Source: a virus (taxonomy: Duplodnaviria > Heunggongvirae > Uroviricota > Caudoviricetes). From it: a stretch of DNA of 49,997 nt. The stretch lies in the IMG/VR virus record IMGVR_UViG_2737471863_000004, positions 1-49,997 of that record; one strand, 5' to 3'. A program made the translations under genes and the position numbers. Each line of letters starts with the position of its first letter. The first letter of the stretch is position 1. The notes under the pieces were generated by a model. The model saw nothing but the letters and a program-made list of their open reading frames with translations, had not been told where the DNA came from and made no database searches. This document shows, piece by piece, positions 1-48,989 of this stretch.

Positions 1-228
1 ATGAGCTTATTGCCTCGGGAAAACGCACCCCAAAAAAGATATAGACTTCTGAGAATATCAGAAGTGATTAATTTGACTGGCTTACCCAAGTCAACAATTT
101 ATCTAAAGATAAAGAATGATGAATTTCCGAACCAAGTTTCTATCGGTTCTCGTTCTGTTGCATGGGTGGAGCATGAAGTTAATGAATGGATAGAGAAGAA
201 TATTCTCAATAGAAAATTAAACTCCTAA
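1..228 (+). CDS. alpA: AlpA/Vis-family prophage regulatory protein (HTH, excisionase-like)
   Basis: 75 aa; motif RLLRISEVINLTGLPKSTIYLKIKNDEFP...SVAWVEHEVNEWI is typical of AlpA/P4 Vis. Recognised from memory of the family. Confidence 0.85.
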   Translation: MSLLPRENAPQKRYRLLRISEVINLTGLPKSTIYLKIKNDEFPNQVSIGSRSVAWVEHEVNEWIEKNILNRKLNS

Positions 229-245
229 ATTGAGGTGGCAAATAT

Positions 246-1106
246 ATGGTTGACAATGTTTTTAAGAAGAAATTGGCATCAATTAAGAACGAACATGTGT
301 CGGTGTTAGATAGTTACAAAGTAAGATCATTTAAAGAGACTCATAGCGACACGGCCTGTATTGTGCGTATTATTGAAATATATTCACTGAATAAGCTGCG
401 AGCTAAAGGTGAAAAGCTGTATTCACTTACGGGGTTAACAGTACCTGATACGGAAACTGTGGCGAATGAGATCAACCTGCTCCTGAGCCGTTATGCCCAG
501 TTGTGTCGTCAGGAAGAGGAAGAGTTATCTTTCCGGCAGCGTGAAGTGACAAATGCGGAAGTTGCATGGAAAAGCACATTCTCAAAAAACGGCGTCAGTA
601 GCATTGCTGAAGCCAAAACGAATAAAATGGGGCATGCTGAACGAGCGGATGCTGAACGGTATTACCATCTGGCTGTTTCCCGGTTGAATGAACAACATAG
701 TCGATTGAGCACGATCAAGCTTTTGCCGGGAGTACTGGCCGATGAAGGAAACTACATTGGGAAGGGAATCGATAAGCGTTTACTGAATATATTTCCTCAA
801 TCCGGCCAGATCCCTGCTGATTTTATTTCTGTATTTAATGACAGTGACGTTGTCCGTGATATTAAATTTATTACTGATGCACTCAAGTCTTTATCTGATT
901 CCGTGAGTGAAATTATTAGTCGTTGTAGCGTTCCAACTGATCGTTATGTATTAAATAACGGTGGAATGGCAAGAGCTATGGCTTACAGGGAGTACTATCG
1001 AGCAGATAATTATGTATTACGTTCAGTCGTAAGTGACCGGGATTATGTTGAGCATGTAATGAAATACAATCTGGTTACTGAGTACAAAAATAAAATCTTT
1101 TCTTAA
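246..1106 (+). CDS. Hypothetical protein of the satellite left operon; possible capsid-assembly partner of the downstream gene (positional inference only)
   Basis: 286-aa ORF with an ATG start 18 bp after alpA, co-oriented, normal GC; no motif recognised. Confidence 0.55.
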   Translation: MVDNVFKKKLASIKNEHVSVLDSYKVRSFKETHSDTACIVRIIEIYSLNKLRAKGEKLYSLTGLTVPDTETVANEINLLLSRYAQLCRQEEEELSFRQREVTNAEVAWKSTFSKNGVSSIAEAKTNKMGHAERADAERYYHLAVSRLNEQHSRLSTIKLLPGVLADEGNYIGKGIDKRLLNIFPQSGQIPADFISVFNDSDVVRDIKFITDALKSLSDSVSEIISRCSVPTDRYVLNNGGMARAMAYREYYRADNYVLRSVVSDRDYVEHVMKYNLVTEYKNKIFS

Positions 1107-1128
1107 ATACTTAAAAAGGTGAAAAACT

Positions 1129-2133
1129 ATGTATGCCTTCAAAACTGAAAGGCCGGACGCAGCACGTCGTTATCATAATAAATTCGTCACTGGCACTAAC
1201 TATCAGGAAGAATCAAACAGACGCTTTGCATTAAGCGAACCTACTGAAAATATACTGCGTACCTCAATTCTGGAATCCGGGTGGCTTATTAAAAATATTA
1301 CCCTACGTGATGTTAACGCCGTGTCAGGTAATGCCGTCAATATTGGTGCCAGTGAACTGTATACCGGACGTGTGGATGGTGGCCGTTTCCACAAAAAAAT
1401 GGCAATCAATGGTACGGAGTTCTTTCTGACAGAGACGGATACCTGCGCCCGGATCAGCTATTCCGATATGTCTCATATTTACCATACCGGCGTGCCGGAT
1501 GAGTTTGAGAAAACGGTTGAGAGCTTTTTTGCCCAGGCATATGCGCTGGACATGCTGCGGGTCGGTTTCAATGGTGTGTCGATTGCAAATACTACAAACC
1601 CGGAAATCAATAAAAAAGGCGAGGATGTCAATATTGGCTGGCATGCACTGGCGAAAGCCTACGGGAACGGAAAGCAAATCATCTCTGAGCCTGTCACTCT
1701 GGGAGAGACTGGCACCTGGAAAAATATTGATGCTCTGGCCAACCATCTGATTACAGAGCTTATTGCTGAGCAGTTTCGTGAAGATCCTCGTCTGGTTGTA
1801 CTGGTTGGGGCAGAGCTGGCAGCACATCAACGCCTGAAGTTATTTAATGCCGCAGACCGCCCGTCTGATGTGAATGCGGCACAGATGGCTACAAGTTCTG
1901 TTGCTGGCCGCTTTGCGTTTATTCCCCCGTTTATGCCGGGTAAGCGTCTGGCAGTAACGACGCTGGATAATCTGCATATTTACACTCAGGCGATAACACG
2001 CTGGTTTCGTGCTGAGTTTGATGATGAAAGCAGTGAATACGTGCATTCCTACCTGCGCAATGAAGGTTATGCACTCGGTGAACCTGAACTGTACGCGGCT
2101 GTCGATGAGAGCGCCCTGACGTTTGCGGATTGA
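1129..2133 (+). CDS. Probable P2 GpN-family major capsid protein homologue
   Basis: 334 aa; blocks GFNGV, NIGW, EDPRLVVLVGAEL and TTLDNLHIY align with my recollection of P2 GpN (GFNGV, VGW, EDPDLVVIVG, ENLSIY). Recalled, not searched. Confidence 0.5.
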   Translation: MYAFKTERPDAARRYHNKFVTGTNYQEESNRRFALSEPTENILRTSILESGWLIKNITLRDVNAVSGNAVNIGASELYTGRVDGGRFHKKMAINGTEFFLTETDTCARISYSDMSHIYHTGVPDEFEKTVESFFAQAYALDMLRVGFNGVSIANTTNPEINKKGEDVNIGWHALAKAYGNGKQIISEPVTLGETGTWKNIDALANHLITELIAEQFREDPRLVVLVGAELAAHQRLKLFNAADRPSDVNAAQMATSSVAGRFAFIPPFMPGKRLAVTTLDNLHIYTQAITRWFRAEFDDESSEYVHSYLRNEGYALGEPELYAAVDESALTFAD

Positions 2134-2146
2134 CTTAGCGACAGAA

Positions 2147-2175
2147 AGACCCGCTCAGAGGCGGGTCTCGTTTAC
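2147..2175 (+). terminator. Possible intrinsic terminator after the capsid-like gene
   Basis: GC hairpin AGACCCGC-loop-GCGGGTCT followed by a weak T stretch (CGTTTAC). Confidence 0.35.
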
Positions 2176-2324
2176 AGCATCAGGAAAAATGAAGAACTAT
2201 TTTTAAGCAGAGGCTTAAGCATGCCAGCGTTAATTAATCCAGGCAATGATCAGTTTTCGGTTATAAATTTCTTGCCTCACCAGGAATGCGCGGGATATAG
2301 TTTAAAGGTTGCCGCAAAATCGGC

Positions 2325-2600
2325 AGCCGGGCGTAGGAACCCGTGTTATCTGAAGGCGATACTACACGCGCCAGGCGTGTTTTTTTGTGTCGCAGCTTTG
2401 ACTCACCTAAAATTTATGGTGTGGTGGCTGATTGTATTTTTTTATTTTTTACGCCACATCATCAGAATTATGGTAGTCCAGGCGGGGCAGCTTTCGGGCT
2501 GGCCGGTATCCTTCAGAGCCGGTATTCCTACCCCCGTCTGGGCTACCACCCATGAGCGTAGGAACTCCGGTGGTAGCGTTACCCGCTATCTGAAGGAGGT
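2325..2600 (+). promoter_or_regulatory. P4-type immunity region: two direct repeats (seqA/seqC-like) flanking a complementary segment (seqB/CI-RNA-like)
   Basis: GCGTAGGAAC...TATCTGAAGG occurs at about 2331..2356 and 2557..2596. Between them, about 2510..2530 (CCTTCAGA...TTCCTAC) is the reverse complement of both halves. A hairpin plus T7 run at about 2369..2387 follows the first repeat. Confidence 0.45.
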
Positions 2601-2607
2601 TGCCATT

Positions 2608-2811
2608 ATGGCTACAGTCCCTGCTTTATCTCACCCTGAATTTACCTTTGTCTTTCTGGCTGTCCGCCGTACAGACCGTGATGCCCGTCCACGCCCTGTG
2701 CGTGTAATCGCAGAATGCGAGCATGCTGCACGCCTTAAACTTGCCACTGAATTTATCCTGAGCTTTGCTGCCCGTATCCCTGTGAAAAGAGCCGGGGAGG
2801 TGGTTGCATGA
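2608..2811 (+). CDS. Small hypothetical protein, 67 aa
   Basis: ATG at 2608 preceded by strong SD AAGGAGG; the SD lies inside the second immunity repeat. The start is internal to a longer track ORF that I reject. Confidence 0.4.
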   Translation: MATVPALSHPEFTFVFLAVRRTDRDARPRPVRVIAECEHAARLKLATEFILSFAARIPVKRAGEVVA

Positions 2812-3044
2812 AATCCATGAATTTTAAGCAAGGCTGCATATTGAGTGAACAGGGGGAGAGTCGTCTGTTACGGGCGGCACTGGCCAGTGAGTTTCTTGCA
2901 GAGGTCTTGTCCGTGCCCACAGTGAATGGAGCGAGAACTGTTTCAGCGGAAGGCGCTGCGGCTTTAGTGGCCTGTATTGCCGAACAACTGGATGGCGTTG
3001 TTAAGGAAACCAGCACAATTAAGGGAGTGATGCGCGATGAATAA
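2808..3044 (+). CDS. Hypothetical protein, 78 aa, upstream of the primase (position analogous to P4 epsilon)
   Basis: ORF with overlapping stop/start coupling to neighbours in the same operon. Confidence 0.45.
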   Translation: MKSMNFKQGCILSEQGESRLLRAALASEFLAEVLSVPTVNGARTVSAEGAAALVACIAEQLDGVVKETSTIKGVMRDE

Positions 3045-3447
3045 TAATCAAAATTTAAAGGCGCATGCTTTACGAACAGCAGTCTTACGCTACTACATTG
3101 CTGATGCATTCATTTCCTTAATGGTGCGTGTTCATAATGAACCTGTTTATATTGAAGATGGCGAACGAATAGAACTCTCCCACGAAAAAGTGGTGAGTAA
3201 TATTATTTACCATATTGAAATGCCGTGGGTGAATGAGTTTGGGGCTGATGCTGGTTGCATACTGGCCGCAGAGAAACTGGAAAAAATGCTTAAACCAGGC
3301 TTTATGTCAGAAAATATTCGCCTGTCAGTTTTTGGTGTCACAGAGATGCGTGAGGTTTACCGGGATATTATTTTCGGAGCACCTGATGGCGAACTACCCG
3401 AAGGTTTTGAATTTGTGAAGCCGGAAGGTCAGGAGGTGCTGCTGTGA
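3037..3447 (+). CDS. Hypothetical protein, 136 aa
   Basis: ORF whose stop overlaps the primase start (operon coupling). Confidence 0.5.
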   Translation: MNNNQNLKAHALRTAVLRYYIADAFISLMVRVHNEPVYIEDGERIELSHEKVVSNIIYHIEMPWVNEFGADAGCILAAEKLEKMLKPGFMSENIRLSVFGVTEMREVYRDIIFGAPDGELPEGFEFVKPEGQEVLL

Positions 3448-6131
3448 AAACACCGTCTGTATCCACGATTTCCGGAGCTGCAATTGGGCGCTGGCCTTAT
3501 ATCCTGTCAGCATTAGGTATTAAAGTACCGTCCGCAGGACATCATGGGGCTTGCCCTGCCTGTGGTGGAAAAGATCGTTTTCGACTGGACGATAAAGCGG
3601 GGCGAGGGACGTGGTTTTGTAATCAGTGCGGTCATGGCGATGGTCTTGATCTGGTTCGTCTGGTGACAGGAAGAAAGATAAAAGAAGTCGCCGGGATGGT
3701 ATCTGAGGCGCTTGCATTACCAGAAATACAGGAGAAGCCCGCATTGCCAGCCAGGAAAAAGGCCGCAGGAAAAGAAGCGGGCGCGGAGCGATATACCAGA
3801 CTCAGACAGCAGTCCTGCAATGGTGAGCCGGTCTATCTGACAAATAAGGGCTTACACGGGTATTCACTTCCCTTGCTGTCACAGCCTTTGAATCTGGCCG
3901 GAATAACATTTTCCACCGGTTCATTACTGCTGCCTTTGACGGATATTTCCGGGAATATTACTGGTGGCCAGCTTATCAATCCTGACGGGGATAAAAGTCT
4001 GCTGCCCGGTAGCCAGCTGTCTGGCGCATTCATTGCCCTGACCGATATACCCGCTGAAACACCTGAACAGGTGATTATCACTGAGGGTTTTGCCACGGCG
4101 CTTACCGTCAGTCTGCTGACTGAAGGATGGATCGTGGCGGCTGTCGCTGCCACCAATTTACTGAAGGTGACGGAGCAGATCCGAAAACGCTGGCCGGAAA
4201 CTCGGATCATTCTGGCCGGAGATAATGATCTGGCTGACGGCAAAGAAAACACCGGGCGTATTCAGGCAGAGAAAGCCGCCAAAGCGGTGGATGGCTGGGT
4301 AACGCTCCCTCCGGTACGCCATAAGGCTGACTGGGATGATTATCGGCAGGAAGTGGGGAAAGAACGGGCGAGAGATGCCTTTCGTGAAGAAATGACGCTG
4401 CATGGCAAAGGGCAGACCCGTTTACCAGAAGGGTTCCGGCTGACAAAAGAATATTTGTGGTACGACAAGCTGGTTAATAAGTCTGATGGTGATACAGAGA
4501 TACGTAATATCAAAATTTGCAGTCCGTTGCGGGTGACGGCAATCACCAGTGATGCTGATGGAAGTAATTACGGGCGTTTGCTGGAATGGGAAGATACCAA
4601 CGGAAACAGCCGTAAATGGGCAATGCCGATGGAGATGCTGGGCGGTAGCGGGGAAGAACTGCGCCGCGTTCTGCTGGTTAACGGGCTTTCTTACATCAAC
4701 ATTAATGGCATGGCCAGAGCATTCCTGATGGAATATATCTCGCTGTGTAAACCGGACAGAAAAGTAACCTGTGTGAATAAAACTGGCTGGCACGGCGGGG
4801 TTTACGTTCTCCAGGATGAAGTGATAGGGCGCGAAGCCCAGTCAGTCATCTTACAAACATCGAGTGTGCAGGGGCGTGATTTTCGTGTCAGCGGCACATC
4901 AGAGGGCTGGCGTGAAAATATAGGCCGTTATTGCATAAAGAATGCCCGTCTTGCCTTTGCGGTGAGTCTGGCATTTGCTGCCCCCCTTCTGAAACTGGTT
5001 GGTATCGGCGGTGGAGGTTATCACCTCAAAGGGGAATCCACAGACGGTAAAACCACGACGATGAAAGTGGCTGCATCAGTATGTGGTGGAACAGATTTCT
5101 GGCATACGTGGCGGGCGACGGGGAATGCCTTAGAAGGAACGGCGAGCCGCCGCAATGATGCCACGCTGATGCTGGATGAAATCCGGGAGGTTGACGGCAG
5201 GGAGGCGGGGAATATCGCTTATATGCTGGCTAACGGGCAGGGCAAAGCCAGAGCCAGAACAGATGGTTCGGTAAGGGAAACCAACCGCTGGAATCTGTTG
5301 TTTCTGTCTACCGGGGAACTGTCACTGGTAGAGCATGCGGCAAGCGCCGGGGAACGTACGTATGCCGGGGTTGAGGTCAGAATGATCCAGATCCCAAGCG
5401 ATTCGGGCAAGTATGGCGTGTTTGAAGAACTTCATGGCTTCAGTAGCGGGAAAACCCTGGCTGAGCATCTTGAGCAGCACGTAGCGCATTATCATGGTGC
5501 ACCATTCCGCGACTGGCTGTATTGCCTGACCGCTGATCTGCCGGAACTGACCAGTCAGGCGAAAGCCTTATTGAAAGAGTATACCCGAAGGCTGACGCCG
5601 GAAAATGCCGGGAATCAGGTTGGCCGGGCTGTTACCCGTTTTGCTCTGGTTGCGATGGCCGGGGAGCTGGCCACAAAAGCGGGCATCACAGGATGGCCGG
5701 AGGGAGAGGCCTTTCGTGCCGCTCAAAGCTGTCTGGCTGCATGGATGGCTGACCGGGGCCATACAGCTAATCAGGAAGATAAAGCGGCACTTGAACAGGT
5801 TCGGGACTTCATGACGCGTAATCAGTTCAGTCGGTTTGCTGACTGGAATGACGACAGGAACCGGCCTGTTTCAATGATGGGATTCAGAAAAGTCGATAAA
5901 GGAGACAACGTGACAGAGCCGGTTGTGACGTTCTACGTTCTCCCGTCAGGCTGGAAGGAGATCTGTAAGGGATTTGACTCGCGTAAGGTGGCCAGGTTGT
6001 GTGTGGACGCGGGCTGGCTGAAACCCGGTGAAGATGGCCGGACGCAAAACAGCATTCGCCTGCCAGAAATAGGGCTTAAACGTGTGTACCAGTTCAATAC
6101 ACAGGTACTGGGAAGCGCTGAACCTGAGTGA
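3444..6131 (+). CDS. P4 alpha-type primase-helicase
   Basis: 895 aa; N-terminal Cys/His zinc-ribbon (CPACGG...CNQCGH) and Walker A GESTDGKTT. Family recognised from memory. Confidence 0.85.
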   Translation: MKTPSVSTISGAAIGRWPYILSALGIKVPSAGHHGACPACGGKDRFRLDDKAGRGTWFCNQCGHGDGLDLVRLVTGRKIKEVAGMVSEALALPEIQEKPALPARKKAAGKEAGAERYTRLRQQSCNGEPVYLTNKGLHGYSLPLLSQPLNLAGITFSTGSLLLPLTDISGNITGGQLINPDGDKSLLPGSQLSGAFIALTDIPAETPEQVIITEGFATALTVSLLTEGWIVAAVAATNLLKVTEQIRKRWPETRIILAGDNDLADGKENTGRIQAEKAAKAVDGWVTLPPVRHKADWDDYRQEVGKERARDAFREEMTLHGKGQTRLPEGFRLTKEYLWYDKLVNKSDGDTEIRNIKICSPLRVTAITSDADGSNYGRLLEWEDTNGNSRKWAMPMEMLGGSGEELRRVLLVNGLSYININGMARAFLMEYISLCKPDRKVTCVNKTGWHGGVYVLQDEVIGREAQSVILQTSSVQGRDFRVSGTSEGWRENIGRYCIKNARLAFAVSLAFAAPLLKLVGIGGGGYHLKGESTDGKTTTMKVAASVCGGTDFWHTWRATGNALEGTASRRNDATLMLDEIREVDGREAGNIAYMLANGQGKARARTDGSVRETNRWNLLFLSTGELSLVEHAASAGERTYAGVEVRMIQIPSDSGKYGVFEELHGFSSGKTLAEHLEQHVAHYHGAPFRDWLYCLTADLPELTSQAKALLKEYTRRLTPENAGNQVGRAVTRFALVAMAGELATKAGITGWPEGEAFRAAQSCLAAWMADRGHTANQEDKAALEQVRDFMTRNQFSRFADWNDDRNRPVSMMGFRKVDKGDNVTEPVVTFYVLPSGWKEICKGFDSRKVARLCVDAGWLKPGEDGRTQNSIRLPEIGLKRVYQFNTQVLGSAEPE

Positions 6132-6157
6132 TTATCGCGTGAGTCTTATTTTTATGA

Positions 6158-6350
6158 GGTAACACTGGTAACAGAGGTAACACCCGTTACTGATGCGGTT
6201 CTTCAGTGTTACCAGTCAAAAATACTGACTGGTAACAGAGGTAACAAAAAATGGTGTGTTACCACGCGTTACCTCTTGATTTTGCTAACTGGTAACAGAT
6301 TAAATCCTTTTAAATCAATAGCGTTACACGTGTTACCAGTGTTACACGTT
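6158..6350. repeat. Iteron array (putative ori/crr-like primase binding sites)
   Basis: At least nine copies of GGTAACA / TGTTACC in both orientations within about 200 bp just after the primase gene; resembles P4 type I iterons (TGTTCACC). Confidence 0.55.
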
Positions 6351-6413
6351 CAGAACAAGAGGTAGGGATCCAAATCCCTTCTTCTGGCGGGCAACAGTAT
6401 AGGGCACAGAACG

Positions 6414-6686
6414 ATGAAGATGATGAGAATGTACTGCCCCACATGTCAGGCAGTAGCACGGATAGGTAAAACAAACAGGAAACACCCACAACTGTACGAT
6501 GTGTACTGCTATTGCTCTAATGTGGAGTGCGGTCACTCGTTTGTGATGAATGTTGCTTTCTCCCATTCCGTTAGTCCAAGCGCGCTGAACGGGCAGGGAA
6601 GGGTTAAAGAGCTGATTGATGCAATTCCACCCGAGGAACGGGAAAAGGCTTTAAAGTTGCTGCTGGCTGCGCAAAAGAATGGGTAA
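6414..6686 (+). CDS. Ogr/Delta-family zinc-finger late-gene activator
   Basis: Motif MYCPTCQ...CYCSNVECGH matches the CxxC...CxxxxC Ogr/Delta pattern; the true start may be one of the internal Met codons. Confidence 0.75.
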   Translation: MKMMRMYCPTCQAVARIGKTNRKHPQLYDVYCYCSNVECGHSFVMNVAFSHSVSPSALNGQGRVKELIDAIPPEEREKALKLLLAAQKNG

Positions 6687-7366
6687 AGTATGCGTCGGGA
6701 ATGGCCGATCTGTTCCCGGAACCTGAACACAGGATTTCAGTTTATACGGTCATAAAATTATTATTTTTCAACTGGTTATCTTCTTCATGTTTCACAAACC
6801 TTCATAAAATCACACACCTAAAATTAATTATCCATTTAATATCATAGAGTTGCGTATTCAGGCCATAGATTCGACGGACAGTAAAACTGAAAAAAAATGA
6901 ATTTCTTTTCATTCTTTTCAGTTCCTGTATCGCAGTACATCTCGAGGACTGGCACGGACTGGCGGTATCGTTTGTAAAAAATCCAGGCTGAAAATTTTTA
7001 GTGATATGAAAACCGCAGGCGGGTGCGGTGTAGTGCCGTTTTGGTCTGTCGAGCGTATATTTTCCCTTTTTCACGATTGCTGCATATCAAAACGAATGTG
7101 CAGATATCAGGCCGTGTCAAACCGTGAATCGTGGAGCCTAAATGCCCAAACTACGTTTGTAGACCTAGCTAGGGGAAGGTTTCCACATATACTGCTACCT
7201 ATCTTCCAGTCGCTGGTGAGGATCAAGGTAAGCTAACTGGTGAACAAGAAAAGTACTTTCGTATCTTGCGTACTCGTTTTTTTTGATTAGTATGTACAGG
7301 TAGTAACTGGATGGTGAGAATTCGTCATAACTTATCAAATTGCATGATGTTTATAGAGTATGAGTA

Positions 7367-8248
7367 ATGAGTCATAATAAAAAGGAATATGCTAAATTTT
7401 TCCGTCGCCCCATTTTTTCATCCTTAGCAAAAGGTAAGGATATTTCGGATTTATTTGGGAGTTTTGATTCTTACTGCTATGAAACACTGTTTTCAAACAA
7501 TGATAATAATGAACATGAGATTTCACTAAGGGATTTATTTACATCATTATATGATTTTTTGCGTCTGAATTATAGAAATGAATATGTTTATAAGACAGCA
7601 CTTGTCAATAAAATAATATTCGGTAAGCACAGCCCAAAAACAAGTTCGTCGTCCATAGAGTTACCAATTAAAAACTCTATAGTGGATGTTGCGGTGTTTA
7701 ATGGTACGTCTACAGCTTACGAGATTAAGACAGAGTATGATTCACCAAAAAGGTTGATTACTCAAGCCCCTGATTATTTGGATGTTTTTGATAAAGTGTA
7801 TATAGTTACACATCCAGAGTATGCAAGTAAATATTGTGCTTTAAATCTCCCCAGAGTGGGAGTTATGGTTTTGAATAAAAAAGATCAATTGAGTGTCATT
7901 AAGGAGGCAGATTCAAATATTGATTATATTAAAAGTGACAGCTTGTTTTCAGTTCTTAGAAAGGAAGAGTTCTTAGCTATAATAGAAGATTACACTTCAA
8001 CTAAAATAAATATGCCTAATGGATTGGTTTATGAATATTGTAAAGAGATATTCATGCAGATGCCATTAAACATAGCAAATAAATACTTTATCTCTGCTAT
8101 GAAAAAAAGATGTAACGACAAAGTTTTTTTGGATTATATTTATTCTCTTCCAGCATGTTTACGTGTTTTAGGTTATGCAACACCATTATCAAGAAAGCAA
8201 AAAGAATTCATCATGAATTTGATGGATGTAAAAATTAAAATTTGTTGA
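7367..8248 (+). CDS. Cargo protein A, 293 aa, with a putative PD-(D/E)xK nuclease-like core
   Basis: Very AT-rich codon usage versus flanks. Motif IVDVAVFNGTSTAYEIKTE (D107, E119, K121) fits the restriction-endonuclease-like pattern. No signal peptide or TM segment seen. Confidence 0.7.
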   Translation: MSHNKKEYAKFFRRPIFSSLAKGKDISDLFGSFDSYCYETLFSNNDNNEHEISLRDLFTSLYDFLRLNYRNEYVYKTALVNKIIFGKHSPKTSSSSIELPIKNSIVDVAVFNGTSTAYEIKTEYDSPKRLITQAPDYLDVFDKVYIVTHPEYASKYCALNLPRVGVMVLNKKDQLSVIKEADSNIDYIKSDSLFSVLRKEEFLAIIEDYTSTKINMPNGLVYEYCKEIFMQMPLNIANKYFISAMKKRCNDKVFLDYIYSLPACLRVLGYATPLSRKQKEFIMNLMDVKIKIC

Positions 8249-8269
8249 TATCCTCAGGAGTTGTAAGTT

Positions 8270-9220
8270 ATGTATAGCCCATATTTGTATGCGAGAAGTA
8301 CAGAGTTATTATGCCTTAGGGACCTCGTTGCGAAGGGAGTTAGCCTAAATGGTCTGCTACCAATTTTAGAACCAATTAACGTCAATACGAGAAATTTATT
8401 AACATGTTTAAATGTTTGGAATTCTGACATAATTGTTATCCTTAATCCTTATCAGGAAGATTTTTCTTCACACAATAACGTCTTAACTTTAAATCAAAAT
8501 TTATCAAGTGTATTAACAAATAAAAACAATATCATCTCTGGATATCTTATTCAGCCCAATACAACGATTAATGATATTAATAATTGGTTGAATGCTAACT
8601 TAAATAGACGAGTTGCACTTCTATATGATAATCCATCATTATCCAACTCTGATATTCAGTTGTTGGCGACAAATCAATTGATTAGTTATCATGTTGTTTT
8701 AAATAATAAAATGCTTCCTAATCAGTGCGCTCTTCTTCCTTTGTCGAAGTTAATTATTATTAGCGATAACTTTAGAAAGTTAGCAAAAAATGCTGATTAT
8801 AATGGGCCGGAACTTTTCACGCACGCACATCAATTCGTGGGACAAAATTACTTAGGATTTGGCGATTATACAATTACTGGCCAGGTACTAGATCTTGGAG
8901 GTGGTCAACCTTCTGCTGTTGCCGCACATTTGGTGTTCAAGAATTTACAAGCGAATACAGTTTGGATTCGTCATTTTGTATCAAGCAACACGCAACGAGG
9001 AAGTTCAAATGTTACTGCAAAATTTTTAGATGTTTCAGATCAAATTACAAATCTTGTTCCCCAACATCCAACCCAGTTTGGCAGCAACATTGGTCTTAAC
9101 TATTATTATTACAATAGTCAACCAACTGTAAGGCATTTCCCTGGGTTGCCAAAAAACAAACAGTATCAAATTACTCACCATATTTGTTTCATGCTGGATT
9201 TAATAGCAGGTCGTATTTAA
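8270..9220 (+). CDS. Cargo protein B, 316 aa, function unknown
   Basis: AGGAG RBS 11 nt upstream; 21 bp after cargo A, so likely an operon. AT-rich; no motif recognised. Its 3' end overlaps the integrase 3' end by 21 bp, convergently. Confidence 0.7.
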   Translation: MYSPYLYARSTELLCLRDLVAKGVSLNGLLPILEPINVNTRNLLTCLNVWNSDIIVILNPYQEDFSSHNNVLTLNQNLSSVLTNKNNIISGYLIQPNTTINDINNWLNANLNRRVALLYDNPSLSNSDIQLLATNQLISYHVVLNNKMLPNQCALLPLSKLIIISDNFRKLAKNADYNGPELFTHAHQFVGQNYLGFGDYTITGQVLDLGGGQPSAVAAHLVFKNLQANTVWIRHFVSSNTQRGSSNVTAKFLDVSDQITNLVPQHPTQFGSNIGLNYYYYNSQPTVRHFPGLPKNKQYQITHHICFMLDLIAGRI

Positions 9221-10423
9221 TAAGCTAGCGTACCATTCCATCATTACTTGTCGATCTTTAATATATTGCGCATGATTGTAAGTACCTCGAATAGAGTTCT
9301 TATCAACATGCGCAAGCTGCATTTCAATCCAGGCACTTTCAAACCCATGCTCATGCAAGATGGTGCTCATGGTATGCCTGAAACCGTGACCCGTTAACCG
9401 ACCGTGATAACCCAGTAGTTTTATCACTTTGTTGATGCTGGCTTCGCTCATTGGTTTCCTGACGTCATTTCGGCCAGGGAAAACGAGGCTGTAATTCCCT
9501 GTTATTTCTTGCAGCTTTTTCAGGATATTGATCGCCTGAGTTGATAACGGAACCAGATGGGGGCGGCGTTTCTTCATCCGTTCTTTGGGGATCTCCCATA
9601 AGGCATTATCTAAATCAAACTCAGCCCATTCCGCTGCACGTAGTTCAATTGTTCGCACGCCTGTTAGCATCAACAGCTGCGTGGCGTATTTGGTAACTAA
9701 ACTGCCCTGATAGTTATCCAGAGCATTAACGAACTCGGGCAACTCGCTTTCAGTCAGGAACGGGAAGTGTTGGGTTTTAGGTTTGTTGAGTGCGATAGCT
9801 AAATCGGGTGCAAAATTATACTTTGCTCTACCAGTGGCAACAGCATAACGAAGCACTTCACCACAGCGGCGGCGGATCTTACTGGTTTGCTCTAGCGCAC
9901 CTCTTTTCTCTATTTTTTGCAGGACGGTTAGCAGTTCTAATGGTTCAATCTGCTCAATTGGGCGCTGGCCGATAAAAGGAAAAATATCCTTTTCCATACA
10001 ATTGAGAACCTCTTTTGCATAACCCTCTGACCAGGTGGCTTTTTTCGATGAGTGCCATTCTCTGGCCACAGACTCAAAGCTGTTCTCATGCGCGAACTGC
10101 AAAGCAATCTTATCTGCTTTTCTGGCTTCACTTGGGTTTATCCCTTTGGCTAACATCGAACGCGCTTCATCACGTTTGGTACGTGCCTGTGCCAACGACA
10201 CATCGCCATATACGCCAAAGGAAATCATCTTAGGCTTACCTGCAAAGCGATAGCGAAAACGCCAGCCTTTACTGCCCGCTGTGTCGATCAGGAGTGATAG
10301 CCCCATACCATCGTTAAGCGTATAGGGTTTGTCCTTCGGTTTTGCTCTTTTTATTTGGATGTCAGATAGCAGCATGTGTATAGAAAAAAGATCGAACTCA
10401 GTTATACACAATGTTATACGCAA
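9200..10423 (-). CDS. Tyrosine integrase, IntS/P4 family, of the satellite
   Basis: N-terminal DKPYTLNDGMGLSL arm-binding motif and C-terminal HGFRH...RGTYNHAQY catalytic motifs; clear similarity across the length to IntS at 47596..48753. The likely true start is the internal Met at about 10375. Confidence 0.9.
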   Translation of the reverse strand: MRITLCITEFDLFSIHMLLSDIQIKRAKPKDKPYTLNDGMGLSLLIDTAGSKGWRFRYRFAGKPKMISFGVYGDVSLAQARTKRDEARSMLAKGINPSEARKADKIALQFAHENSFESVAREWHSSKKATWSEGYAKEVLNCMEKDIFPFIGQRPIEQIEPLELLTVLQKIEKRGALEQTSKIRRRCGEVLRYAVATGRAKYNFAPDLAIALNKPKTQHFPFLTESELPEFVNALDNYQGSLVTKYATQLLMLTGVRTIELRAAEWAEFDLDNALWEIPKERMKKRRPHLVPLSTQAINILKKLQEITGNYSLVFPGRNDVRKPMSEASINKVIKLLGYHGRLTGHGFRHTMSTILHEHGFESAWIEMQLAHVDKNSIRGTYNHAQYIKDRQVMMEWYASLLNTTCY

Positions 10424-10534
10424 AGATGTATAGATTCCATTAGAAATAATGGTACTTTGCTGGACGAGTATAAGGAGATGATATCAGTTAAAACAGTGAG
10501 TTATGGAATTAATTGGACTTAGTGAGAAGTGTTC

Positions 10535-10550
10535 ATGGTGTCCCCTGCAG
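10535..10550. repeat. att core copy (ATGGTGTCCCCTGCAG) at the junction between the two elements
   Basis: Exact 16-bp identity to 48914..48929, the 3' end of argW plus 1 nt. It lies between torI and the satellite integrase. Confidence 0.7.
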
Positions 10551-10623
10551 ACATCTACTTGAGGCGGCAGGGGATTGATTGGAATGGTGTTTTTTAGATG
10601 TGAAAAATATTTTACCCGCTATT

Positions 10624-10824
10624 TTACCCATTGGCGCGGCTTAAGAGCTTATTTTTGAATTCACAATGGTCACGATATAACCATCTTGCTCGTCCGTGGA
10701 TAACTTTGGCTTTAGGCAGGTCGCCGGACTTAATCCGGTCATAGATGAAGGTCTTACCGAAGCCAGTATCAGCCATGATGAATTTCAAATCAACCAGTGA
10801 ATCAGGTTGTAGTTCGTGTTGCAT
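10624..10824 (-). CDS. torI: TorI-type excisionase (recombination directionality factor)
   Basis: 66 aa, MQHELQPDSLVDLKFIMADTGFGKTFIYDRIKSGDLPKAKVIHGRARW..., matching the E. coli KplE1 TorI as I recall it; located next to the att core. Confidence 0.8.
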   Translation of the reverse strand: MQHELQPDSLVDLKFIMADTGFGKTFIYDRIKSGDLPKAKVIHGRARWLYRDHCEFKNKLLSRANG

Positions 10825-10843
10825 GAGTGCTATCTCCGAATAT

Positions 10844-10859
10844 GGAATCGAACCTGCAA
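10844..10859. repeat. 16-bp argW-derived fragment (GGAATCGAACCTGCAA), not a functional tRNA
   Basis: Identical to argW 48929..48944 (T-arm region), but the flanks do not fold into a tRNA; separated from the att core by the torI gene. Confidence 0.5.
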
Positions 10860-10946
10860 ATCAGGCAATAAAAAGCCGCATTGATGCAGCAATGGTAGGT
10901 CTGGATATCTTGAGAAATGAACAGGCCTCATCGAGTGTGAGGCGGG

Positions 10947-11291
10947 TTAGTCCTTGCGTAGCTCGCTGATTCTTCTGTAAGTCTCTGGTGCTTTGTTCCC
11001 GTACGCCTTCATTTCAGACTTCAACAGAGCAACGAGTGAATCCCATTCGTTGAGGATTCCTTTGAATGCCGGAACGCGCTTTGCAACCTTGTCGAATGAA
11101 TCTCTGATTTCTGGAATCTGCTCAACAAGTGCAACGCATCGTCGGAAATCGGCTGCGTCATGTGGAGCGCCGAAGTGATGACCATAGATATTCTTTTTCA
11201 GTCCACATGCGATTGAGGCAAGAGTTGCGCTACTGATGCCAACATCGCCAGTCGATTGCCATTTCAAAACCTTCATAGCCAAATCTGACAT
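10947..11291 (-). CDS. Hypothetical early-left protein, 114 aa
   Basis: ORF co-oriented with the leftward early operon. Confidence 0.5.
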   Translation of the reverse strand: MSDLAMKVLKWQSTGDVGISSATLASIACGLKKNIYGHHFGAPHDAADFRRCVALVEQIPEIRDSFDKVAKRVPAFKGILNEWDSLVALLKSEMKAYGNKAPETYRRISELRKD

Positions 11292-11311
11292 TTCTTGTCT
11301 CCATAAAACAA

Positions 11312-11365
11312 AACTCGCCGTAGCGAGTTCAGATAAAAGAAAACCCGCACTCGGCGGGTTCGCAT
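11312..11365 (-). terminator. Two tandem intrinsic terminators on the minus strand
   Basis: Minus-strand hairpins CCCGCCGAGTGCGGG followed by TTTTCTTTT, and CTCGCTACGGCGAG followed by TTTTGTTTT. Confidence 0.5.
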
Positions 11366-11380
11366 TCGTTCAAATTGCGT

Positions 11381-11662
11381 TTACTTCTTGGCGTTCTGTT
11401 CATCCATATCGATATACCATGGGTTGCTTCCCTTGGGCAGGTTTAACGACTGCTCGCGATAGTATCTGACGCGCTCCATGAAATACTCGCGTGAGTGCTC
11501 AGGTTGCTCTCGTGCTACCTGCTCAGTGATAACAGGTATGTTAAGGCGCTCTCTGTACGCCACGCCTGATGCTGCAAGGTCAACGTTTACCTTGTTCTGT
11601 TTTTCTTTCGATTGCTCGGCGATGTTATGCCTGGCATTGTCAACCCGCCTCCTTCTGAACAT
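11381..11662 (-). CDS. Hypothetical early-left protein, 93 aa
   Basis: ORF in the leftward operon. Confidence 0.45.
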   Translation of the reverse strand: MFRRRRVDNARHNIAEQSKEKQNKVNVDLAASGVAYRERLNIPVITEQVAREQPEHSREYFMERVRYYREQSLNLPKGSNPWYIDMDEQNAKK

Positions 11663-12005
11663 AACGGTTATAAATCAGTCCCTGAGGGCCATAAGGAAGA
11701 GGGATGTGCTACTCCTCTGGTTCAGAAACTATCCATTCCCCGGCCATCTCCGCTGGAGAGGTAATGATAAGTTGTTTGCTAATAAAAGGACCACTCCTCT
11801 CAACAACAAGCTTACCATCTTCATTAATAAAAGCGTGGATGTCAGGTGTACTTCCACACTTGGTGATGCAGCGTTTGAACATTTTTTGTCTCCCCATTTT
11901 ATGGACGGGGTCATTATAACACATTGAAATATAGTAATATTTGACGTAGATTCCTTTTGGTCTATGAGCGATTTTTTTATGCCTTTAAGTTATAAAAGCT
12001 TGTTT

Positions 12006-47595: not shown

Positions 47596-48753
47596 TCACT
47601 CCACCTTTTCATCAAGCCAGTCCGCCCACCACTGCATCATTTCTCTGCGCTTATCGAGATACTGTGCATGGTTGTAAATCCCACGCACAGATCCGCCGTT
47701 GGCATGTGCCAGTTGCACTTCAATGGCGTCGGCAGGCCATTCGTGCTCGTTCATAATCGTGCTGAATTCATGCCTGAATCCGTGACCGCTTTCCAGCCCC
47801 TCATAGCCGATTTGTTTGATCACAAGTAGCACCGCGTTCTCGCAGATTGGCTTCTTCTTATCGTTGCGCCCGGCAAAAACAAACTCTGATACTGGTTTGG
47901 TGATTGAGCTTAGCGTAGTGAGAAGTTCAACTACCTGGTCTGACATAGGAACCACATGAATTTTGCGTCCCTTCATCACATTGGCGTCGATGGTGATAAT
48001 ACTGTTTTCAAAATCGACGTTCTTCCATTGCATGGAACGAAGCTCTTTCGTTCTTAGGGCTGTGTAGCGTAAAACTTTGGTCGCAATGAGCGATACGATG
48101 CTTCCTGAAAATGTTGCCAGTGCTTTGTTGAATGCCGGGATCTGGTCTGCAGGAAGAAACGGGAAGTTCTTCTTGCGGTATCCCTTCATGGCGTCAGCAA
48201 GGTCAGGTGCAGGGTTATATTTAGCCCTGCCGGTGACAATAGCGTAACGGAAAACCTCGCCGCATCTTCTGCGGGCTTTATTGGCTCGCTCCATTGCACC
48301 GCGATCTTCAAATCTGCGGATTACTTCAAGAAGTTGCATCGGCTCAATATCCTGAATTTCAAGGCCGCCGATGATAGGTAAAATGTCGTCATCAAACATT
48401 TTTGCAAGTTCAGTCGCATACCCTACTGACCATACTTGCTTCTTGTGCTCGTACCATTCTTTGTAAATCGCACTAAAGGAATTGTTGTTAGACGAAGCCT
48501 TTTTCGCCTTTACCGGATCGATGCCAACCGAGATGTCTTTCTTCGCGGTCCATGCTTTATCTCTTGCCTCCTGCAAAGTCATTAGCGGATATTTTCCTAC
48601 GGTCAGTATTTTTTCCTTACCGTCAATCTTGTAGCGAAGCTGCCATACCTTTTTCCCTGATACAGGGACATAAAGATACAGGCCATTACCATCGAGAAGG
48701 CGGTATGGTTTTTCTTTCGGCTTTGCTGCTTCAATCTGCTTAACGGTGAGCAT
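47596..48753 (-). CDS. intS: Integrase IntS (tyrosine recombinase, argW-specific)
   Basis: From the internal Met MLTVKQIEAAKPKEKPYRLLDGNGLYLYV..., near-identical to E. coli K-12 IntS as recalled; adjacent to argW. Confidence 0.9.
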   Translation of the reverse strand: MLTVKQIEAAKPKEKPYRLLDGNGLYLYVPVSGKKVWQLRYKIDGKEKILTVGKYPLMTLQEARDKAWTAKKDISVGIDPVKAKKASSNNNSFSAIYKEWYEHKKQVWSVGYATELAKMFDDDILPIIGGLEIQDIEPMQLLEVIRRFEDRGAMERANKARRRCGEVFRYAIVTGRAKYNPAPDLADAMKGYRKKNFPFLPADQIPAFNKALATFSGSIVSLIATKVLRYTALRTKELRSMQWKNVDFENSIITIDANVMKGRKIHVVPMSDQVVELLTTLSSITKPVSEFVFAGRNDKKKPICENAVLLVIKQIGYEGLESGHGFRHEFSTIMNEHEWPADAIEVQLAHANGGSVRGIYNHAQYLDKRREMMQWWADWLDEKVE

Positions 48754-48914
48754 GGGTAAAAATCCGGTGGGTAAAATTATTTTATCCACTTTTTACCCGT
48801 CATGGTGTGCGGCTGTCAACGATCTGACGCGAACCATGACGAACCGTGAATATACGGAAGGCTTGATATTCAGGGGATTTTGCGGACTGGTGCGGATGGG
48901 AGCGAACTGATAAA

Positions 48915-48989
48915 TGGTGTCCCCTGCAGGAATCGAACCTGCAATTAGCCCTTAGGAGGGGCTCGTTATATCCATTTAACTAAGAGGAC
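48915..48989 (-). tRNA. argW: tRNA-Arg (anticodon CCU), argW
   Basis: Reverse complement GTCCTCTTAGTTAAATGGATATAACGAGCCCCTCCTAAGGGCTAATTGCAGGTTCGATTCCTGCAGGGGACACCA folds as a cloverleaf with anticodon loop CUCCUAA and a CCA end; its 3' end carries the att core. Confidence 0.9.

Follow-up and report, generated by a model that had tools for sequence, protein, structure and literature searches.

A P4-related satellite and a P22-like prophage in tandem on one att core at argW

Results and discussion

The argW locus and its att core

The window (the whole 49,997-nt stretch of DNA that was analysed) contains two exact copies of the 16-mer ATGGTGTCCCCTGCAG, both on the plus strand, and no further copies were found within it at up to two mismatches. 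Two matches of a 16-mer were seen in none of 100 dinucleotide shuffles, the chance expectation being 0.01 per window. The left-hand copy lies between two gene clusters and the right-hand copy lies at a tRNA gene:

10535-10550, unstranded: inner att core, hybrid (left arm, int side of the satellite; right arm, torI side of the prophage)
48914-48929, unstranded: tRNA-proximal att core (exact 16-mer; ARAGORN)
48915-48989, minus strand: argW, tRNA-Arg(CCT) (ARAGORN; Rfam tRNA)

Given the ARAGORN placement of the tRNA, the right-hand core comprises the last 15 nt of argW (48915-48929, including CCA) plus one base (48914). The sequences flanking the two copies differ immediately on either side (GTGTTC-core-ACATC versus CTGATAA-core-GAATC). 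The 16-nt core of KplE1 was described by Panis et al. (PMC2951348) as CTGCAGGGGACACCAT, and ATGGTGTCCCCTGCAG is its reverse complement; as in that element, the core is found at both ends and overlaps the 3' end of argW. A preliminary description of this DNA had equated the 16-mer at 10535-10550 with that at 48914-48929 and with the argW 3' end, which the exact repeat and the tRNA placement bear out. It had also proposed that one att core is common to two elements; the positions of the genes and cores agree with this, and each element has its own intact tyrosine integrase.

Site-specific recombination at the argW 3' end would thus use the 16-mer as its crossover core. The alternative that the inner copy is a chance match or a relic inside a single 49-kb composite island, and not a functional att, has a negligible probability. 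Besides the low chance expectation, the 16-mer sits exactly where matches to genomes that carry only the satellite stop (positions 1-10550 at 100% identity), and the arm of an IntS/TorI phage begins exactly there, as in KplE1 of strain K-12 and in HK620.

The prophage next to argW

The interval between the two cores (10551-48913; 38,363 bp) is occupied by a P22-like prophage with the following ends:

10551-48913, unstranded: P22-like (CUS-3/Kapi1/HK620-type) prophage, 38.4 kb (phage database matches; PHROG assignments)
10551-10623, unstranded: torI-proximal att arm with two TTTTACCC repeats (candidate arm sites)
10624-10824, minus strand: torI, recombination directionality factor, 66 aa, intact (translation; RefSeq names identical proteins TorI, WP_001163428.1)
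47596-48753, minus strand: intS, integrase, 385 aa (Pfam domains; alignment; the int of HK620 is annotated IntS)
48754-48913, unstranded: intS-proximal att arm with three GGGTAAAA/TTTTACCC repeats (candidate arm sites)

The closest matches in the phage database were CUS-3 (66% coverage at 94.7% identity) and Kapi1 (60% at 95.6%), together with HK620. PHROG assignments included a repressor, replication genes, terminase, portal, scaffold, coat, a head-closure protein, ejection proteins, Ant, and tailspike. This mosaic was absent, at ≥80% coverage, from all RefSeq complete E. coli genomes. Phages that integrate at argW include types that modify the O-antigen and types that modify the K1 capsule, such as Kapi1 and CUS-3.

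The start of intS is 160 nt from the tRNA-side core, and torI is 73 nt from the inner core. The GGGTAAAA/TTTTACCC repeats occur in five copies over both prophage arms, out of eight TTTACCC in the whole window, and they agree, as a motif match, with the TAAA-containing arm-site motif of IntS described by Panis et al. (PMC2951348). The prophage therefore shows the layout of the KplE1/HK620 type, with intS beside argW, torI at the opposite end, and candidate TAAA-type sites in both arms. P22-like phages of the CUS-3/Kapi1/HK620 type are known argW integrators that have an IntS/TorI/att module in common (PMC3509656). The coordinates also confirm the earlier proposal that the core bounds a 38.4-kb prophage whose tRNA end carries intS and whose far end carries torI.

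Gene content of the satellite

The second element lies to the left of the inner core, distal to argW. It is 11.0 kb in size, and its genes are held in positions 1-10534:

1-228, plus strand: alpA/vis-like gene, 75 aa, putative excisionase and regulator (Pfam Phage_AlpA, 5e-20)
246-1106, plus strand: orphan, 286 aa (no database match)
1129-2133, plus strand: P2-family major capsid homologue, 334 aa (PF05125, 1e-66, full-length; PHROG major head protein, 3e-86)
2221-2811, plus strand: Ash/Icd-like ORF, P4-type immunity region (Pfam Phage_ASH, 4.5e-33; 58% identical to the P4 cI-region ORF)
2308-2385, plus strand: isrK RNA inside the Ash/Icd-like ORF (Rfam, 69.5 bits, above gathering score)
2466-2553, plus strand: C4/CI antisense RNA inside the Ash/Icd-like ORF (Rfam, 81.1 bits, above gathering score)
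3444-6131, plus strand: primase/replicase, 895 aa (Zn_Ribbon_Prim, Toprim_3, and DUF927 domains)
6414-6686, plus strand: Ogr/Delta-like zinc-finger homologue of late-gene activators (Pfam Ogr_Delta, 5e-14; weak similarity to P4 Delta)
7367-8248, plus strand: sce7726 (NCBIfam NF033832/NF033831 assign the sce7726/sce7725 pair)
8270-9220, plus strand: sce7725, adjoining int (same NCBIfam assignment of the pair)
9200-10375, minus strand: tyrosine integrase, P4-type, 391 aa (Arm-DNA-bind_3, Phage_int_M, Phage_integrase)
10376-10534, unstranded: int-proximal att arm with candidate repeats TATACAC/GTGTATA and variants (motif counts)

The alpA/vis-like gene is the first gene after the left att as seen in relatives, and its product is 46% identical to P4 Vis/ORF88; its similarity to TorI is limited to 27% over 51 aa. 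The capsid homologue shows 25% identity to P2 gpN and matches PDB entries 7oz4 and 7jw1. The 286-aa orphan, which occupies the position of the scaffold gene in P2, has no relative in Pfam, PHROGs, PADLOC, NCBIfam, or PDB, and none was found to gpO, Sid, or Psu. Two small ORFs lie between the Ash/Icd-like ORF and the primase. The N-terminal 320 aa of the primase are 38-39% identical to P4 alpha, while the C-terminal part has no match; the protein is chimeric relative to alpha, with homologous Zn-ribbon and Toprim domains and with DUF927 in place of the helicase/origin-binding part.

The sce7726/sce7725 pair has a low GC content (0.33-0.36) and lies between the ogr/delta-like gene and int, the position of gop-beta-cII in P4. 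Its sce7726 product is 39% identical to P4 cII over 61 aa, and P4 cII is itself annotated as a member of the sce7726 family. PADLOC returned 'cll' (1e-18) for sce7726 and no match for sce7725. The pair is thus possible anti-phage cargo. In the ST131 genome JJ1886, ISEc23 is inserted directly upstream of the pair.

The preliminary description called this element a P4-like satellite. The core set of P4-like satellites comprises int, alpA, alpha, epsilon, delta, sid, and psu (PMC8628076). Four of these have homologues here, namely int (40% identity), vis/alpA (46%), the N-terminal domain of alpha (38%, the match being confined to the primase part), and Ogr_Delta; the CI/C4 RNA region and the cII/sce7726 homologue also support the P4 connection. 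However, no satellite ORF matched P4 Sid, Psu, or Epsilon (blastp, E ≤ 0.05), the gene order differs, and a P2-family capsid homologue is carried. Homologues of P4 Gop and Beta are absent as well, and a search limited to P2- and P4-like cos sites returned only short matches at chance level. 'P4-related satellite' is a fair label on this gene content, whereas 'P4-like' in the strict core-gene sense goes too far. The combination of a P4-type regulatory and replication backbone with a capsid gene of its own departs from the way in which P4 classically resizes the capsid of its helper.

A third att copy in relatives

The window starts at the ATG of alpA, and the left end of its satellite is therefore inferred from relatives. 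At least 80% of positions 1-12000 was held by 419 of 5426 complete E. coli genomes, with satellites ≥99.5% identical, and four genomes with the arrangement of the window were fetched (JX2, ST131 strain 4993, E62, and Bongo). JX2 was the best match to the satellite plus junction (99.7% identical). In all four, a third att copy, (A/C)TGGTGTCCCCTGCAGGAAT, is located 465 bp leftward of the equivalent of window base 1 and is followed by the alpA-side arm. The third att expected beyond the left window edge was thus found at the predicted place in four of four near-identical arrays, in the DNA of relatives. It is the position of this copy that gives the satellite its size of 11.0 kb and an identity block with argW of 20 nt. 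The left att of the window's own satellite would be (A/C)TGGTGTCCCCTGCAG, about 450-465 bp left of position 1, followed by GTGATTAATG.

The leftmost core varies between A and C at its first base. An integration scar was considered as the cause and discarded, because A is already found with this dsdC flank at the unoccupied site of LF82; the variation reflects the chromosomal background. The alpA-side arm also contains a (CCCAG)n tract of about ten units between the att core and alpA (about 11825-11880 in L001, in the same register in L002; 120-175 bp left of window base 1). This tract could be slippage-prone, near the alpA promoter.

The two integrases belong to different clades

The satellite integrase ORF (9200-10423, minus strand) opens at a TTG, but the ATG at 10375 is favoured by alignment to IntS and P4 Int and by the RefSeq annotation of identical copies. 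The second integrase that had been reported beside the inner core is therefore present, at a distance of 159 nt from its start codon and not the ~110 nt first given. Both integrases are full length, with Arm-DNA-bind_3, Phage_int_M, and the catalytic domain, and the six catalytic columns (R241, K268, H330, R333, H356, and Y366) are invariant among the satellite Int, IntS, and P4 Int.

Pairwise identity is 45% between the satellite Int and IntS, 40% between the satellite Int and P4 Int, and 36% between IntS and P4 Int. From one genome per species, we gathered 80 relatives of the satellite Int and recorded which tRNA gene lies directly upstream of each integrase. Those next to tRNA-Arg(CCT) in Enterobacter and Kosakonia share 91-93% identity with the satellite Int; for those next to tRNA-SeC, Thr(CGT), Gly(CCC), Arg(TCT), and Phe (the selC-, thrW-, glyU-, argU-, and pheV-adjacent integrases), the value is 57-64%. 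IntS is 67% identical to an argW integrase of Tatumella and 48-50% identical to the selC/thrW-type integrases. In a neighbour-joining tree (without bootstrap values), with which the pairwise identities agree, tRNA-Arg(CCT)-adjacent integrases fell into at least four separate clades; the satellite clade was sister to the selC clade, and IntS was placed outside that whole group. The satellite Int thus falls outside the IntS orthologous group, being closer to integrases with other targets.

Calling the two enzymes 'paralogous IntS-family integrases' was therefore an overstatement: with 45% identity and separate clades, neither is the closest relative of the other. On these alignments they are members of the same family from different clades rather than close paralogues, and integrases seem to have acquired argW as a target on more than one occasion.

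We also considered whether the core-binding domains of the two integrases are especially alike, since a three-sequence comparison gave 51% identity between them versus 38% and 28% to P4 Int. This was dropped when 70 family members were included: the IntS domain is 50-53% identical to those of the selC, thrW, and glyU integrases. As integrases with other targets are equally similar and P4 Int is the outlier, the similarity is uninformative about the core that the two elements share.

In a set of about 65 P4-type integrases drawn from many genera (L010-L089), the tRNA gene is co-oriented with the integrase, and its end lies about 150-250 nt before the start of the latter. Repeated changes of target tRNA are seen between neighbouring integrase clades, with SeC, Thr-CGT, Gly-CCC, Arg-TCT, Arg-CCT, Phe, and Asn all represented.

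The recombination modules appear independent

TATACAC/GTGTATA occurs in five copies across both satellite arms (two on the int side and three on the alpA side, the latter seen in JX2), and four copies are present in the whole window. The IntS-type repeats are absent from the satellite arms, and TATACAC is absent from the prophage arms. The int-side arms of the two elements are nearly equal in length (159 versus 160 nt), which raised the idea that they are homologous; we rejected it, because a global alignment was not significant (z = 1.9; 25 of 500 shuffles were as good) and a spacing of about 150-160 nt is found family-wide. Each element has its own integrase, its own candidate arm repeats, and its own excision factor (TorI versus the AlpA/Vis-like protein), so that only the tRNA-derived core is shared. 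The two recombination modules therefore look independent.

We considered whether the modules nevertheless cross-react, with IntS/TorI moving the satellite or the reverse, so that the pair would form one composite mobile unit. The core is common, and both modules are of P4 type, with the same domain layout and about 160 nt between the int start and the core. Against this, the arm repeats are element-specific (GGGTAAAA versus TATACAC) and the int-side arms cannot be significantly aligned; TorI and AlpA share 27% identity over 51 aa only, and the integrases belong to different clades. The partners are also not co-inherited, since 425 genomes have the satellite alone and various phages pair with it. 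We regard cross-reaction as improbable; in particular, the differing arm repeats and unrelated excision factors make cross-action of TorI and AlpA, or composite movement, unlikely.

We infer that both elements are still able to excise. In the distal slot, ACAT takes the place of GAAT in the int-side att of the satellite (...GCAG-ACAT versus ...GCAG-GAAT). Should the satellite Int depend on the entire 20-nt block, excision of the satellite would be blocked until the phage leaves.

A further possibility is that the two elements are adjacent as a helper-satellite pair, with the P22-like prophage mobilising the satellite. Their physical adjacency is compatible with this, and satellites contiguous with prophages are sometimes found (PMC10085698). 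However, the phage-related genes of the satellite are of the P2 family (gpN-like capsid, Ogr/Delta, P4-type CI RNA, and alpha primase), whereas the neighbour is a P22-like podovirus; a common tRNA target explains the adjacency without a helper relation, and co-occupancy is rarer than expected (19 versus 139 genomes, below). With satellite parts of P2/P4 type beside a P22-like neighbour, we consider mobilisation by this prophage very improbable.

Occupancy of argW among E. coli genomes

Junction-spanning queries were searched against the 5426 complete E. coli genomes, with ≥80% coverage required. The int arm of the satellite was joined to argW in 425 genomes and the intS arm in 1720, and the dsdC-argW site was empty in 912. 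The inner junction of the window (satellite int arm, core, torI arm) was found in 13 genomes, with different phages, and the reverse inner junction (intS arm, core, alpA arm of the satellite) in six. These counts show that each element uses argW alone and that both array orders exist.

Over 10,550 bp, the satellite of the window matches those of the six reverse-order arrays at 100.0% identity (isolates from dog, pig, human, and chicken), and those of the other window-type arrays listed at only 99.5-99.8%. Given this match to reverse-array satellites, an IntS remnant could lie unseen to the left, and the locus would then be a triple array, as in the D6 lineage.

Satellite carriers numbered 438 and carriers of IntS elements 1726, with 19 genomes holding both versus about 139 expected (odds ratio 0.087), a depletion that should be read as a lead rather than a result since complete genomes are strongly clonal (e.g., ST131 carries the satellite). 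On a broader reading, at least four clades of P4-type integrases would have gained argW specificity, or switched to it, independently of one another, so that unrelated phages and satellites compete for one site; the roughly 7-fold mutual depletion would then reflect hindrance by the prior occupant of the other's lysogeny, via the altered att or the sce7725/sce7726 cargo. We offer this tentatively and think it rather unlikely as a whole.

Order of integration

The array would read: chromosome, att, satellite (alpA to int), att, P22-like prophage (torI to intS), att/argW, each element having a P4-type integrase beside its tRNA-side att at about 160 nt from the core. In the proposed sequence of events, the satellite occupied argW first, and the phage later entered the tRNA-proximal att that had been regenerated, turning the int-side att of the satellite into the hybrid inner site at 10535-10550. 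The general rule would be that a newcomer integrates at the regenerated tRNA-proximal att.

Three observations underlie this rule. First, beside a satellite of ≥99.5% identity, the proximal slot holds at least three phage early regions (RecT-, Erf-, and lambda Bet/Exo-type). Second, ST131 JJ1886 has the satellite alone at argW, and in ST131 strain 4993 a phage is inserted between satellite and argW. Third, strain D6 carries a reverse array whose distal IntS element has decayed, with an IS4 pseudogene, fragments of genes, and 1 nt missing from the far att, and whose proximal satellite is 100% identical to that of the window. The far att of D6 (L002, 1082-1096) reads GTCCCTGCAG instead of GTCCCCTGCAG, which should lock the IntS remnant in place.

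It should be noted that crossover within identical cores leaves no scar, so that the order of arrival is unprovable from sequence alone. If an IntS phage had been resident and the satellite had entered its distal hybrid att (chromosome/core/torI arm), the crossover inside the common 16 nt would have given an identical product, and the reverse-order arrays are evidence that prior occupation by an IntS element does not keep the satellite from joining the site. Yet in those arrays the newcomer satellite is again tRNA-proximal. The distal site has no tRNA body on its right, and two of the last four bases of the 20-nt block differ there (ACAT versus GAAT). Several different phages adjoin one near-identical satellite, and the satellite is alone at argW in other ST131 genomes. 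Reversed arrival is therefore unlikely, and in the window the satellite was probably the resident and the phage the later arrival. Taken as a whole, the reading that the 16-mer is the argW crossover core, and that two unrelated elements with their own recombination modules integrated sequentially, the satellite most likely first, is highly probable.

Comparison with known systems

The structural reading, with two integrative elements on the argW core, is right, and the underlying observation is confirmed; the arrangement is a real but ordinary case of the well-known tandem island. Tandem tDNA arrays are already catalogued, and the IntS/TorI module and its core are well characterised. No paper on this particular satellite, or on its combination with argW phages, was found, and 13 RefSeq genomes already contain the arrangement. 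A specialist would not be surprised by it, and its value lies mainly in annotation: as the 49-kb argW 'island' is two separately mobile elements with three att sites, boundaries, cargo, and excision predictions are to be made per element. It may also serve as a natural test bed, in which two P4-type modules have only a tRNA-derived core in common and both orders occur in sequenced strains. Such a system bears on whether the newcomer is always tRNA-proximal, whether an element trapped in the distal slot can be excised, and whether the satellite lowers lysogenisation by argW phages.

The proximal element resembles the module of KplE1 (CPS-53), HK620, Sf6, CUS-3, and Kapi1 in its identical 16-nt core, in the placement of intS by argW and torI at the far end, and in its TAAA arm repeats, and it shares a P22-like body with CUS-3, Kapi1, and HK620. 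Unlike in those elements, its far att adjoins the int-side arm of another element and not the chromosome.

The satellite shares with P4 an integrase gene of P4 type that is preceded by the core at about 150-160 nt (151 nt in P4 itself), Vis/AlpA, CI/C4 RNA immunity, the alpha primase domain, an Ogr/Delta-type activator, a size of about 11 kb, and a cII/sce7726 homologue beside int. In contrast to P4, whose target is leuX, it targets argW; its int is inverted relative to the replication operon, and the helicase part of its primase is DUF927. It lacks sid, psu, epsilon, gop, and beta as well as a detectable P2/P4 cos, and it has a gpN-like capsid gene and the orphan.

Accretion of phages, ICEs, or CIMEs at a common att, as in phage-ICE tandems, likewise involves unrelated elements and internal hybrid att sites, and stacking there is site-specific as it is here (PMC13651849). 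Such a tandem can be moved as a unit by one integrase, whereas the modules in the window look independent.

Islander lists 125 tandems among 3919 islands (PMC4383910), and similarity among its three att sites is the norm for a tandem pair (PMC10111431). As in the Islander/TIGER arrays, where each member has its own integrase and a co-oriented tDNA-derived att copy and each pair has three att sites, both elements here have their own integrase (int at 9200-10375, intS at 47596-48753). Two co-oriented copies of the tDNA fragment lie in the window, the third being read in the four relatives only, and each element also occupies the site on its own (satellite, 425 genomes; intS arm, 1720 genomes). 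Nothing in principle sets the argW pair apart from these arrays; its members are a full phage and a satellite with integrases of different clades, and both orders are found in E. coli.
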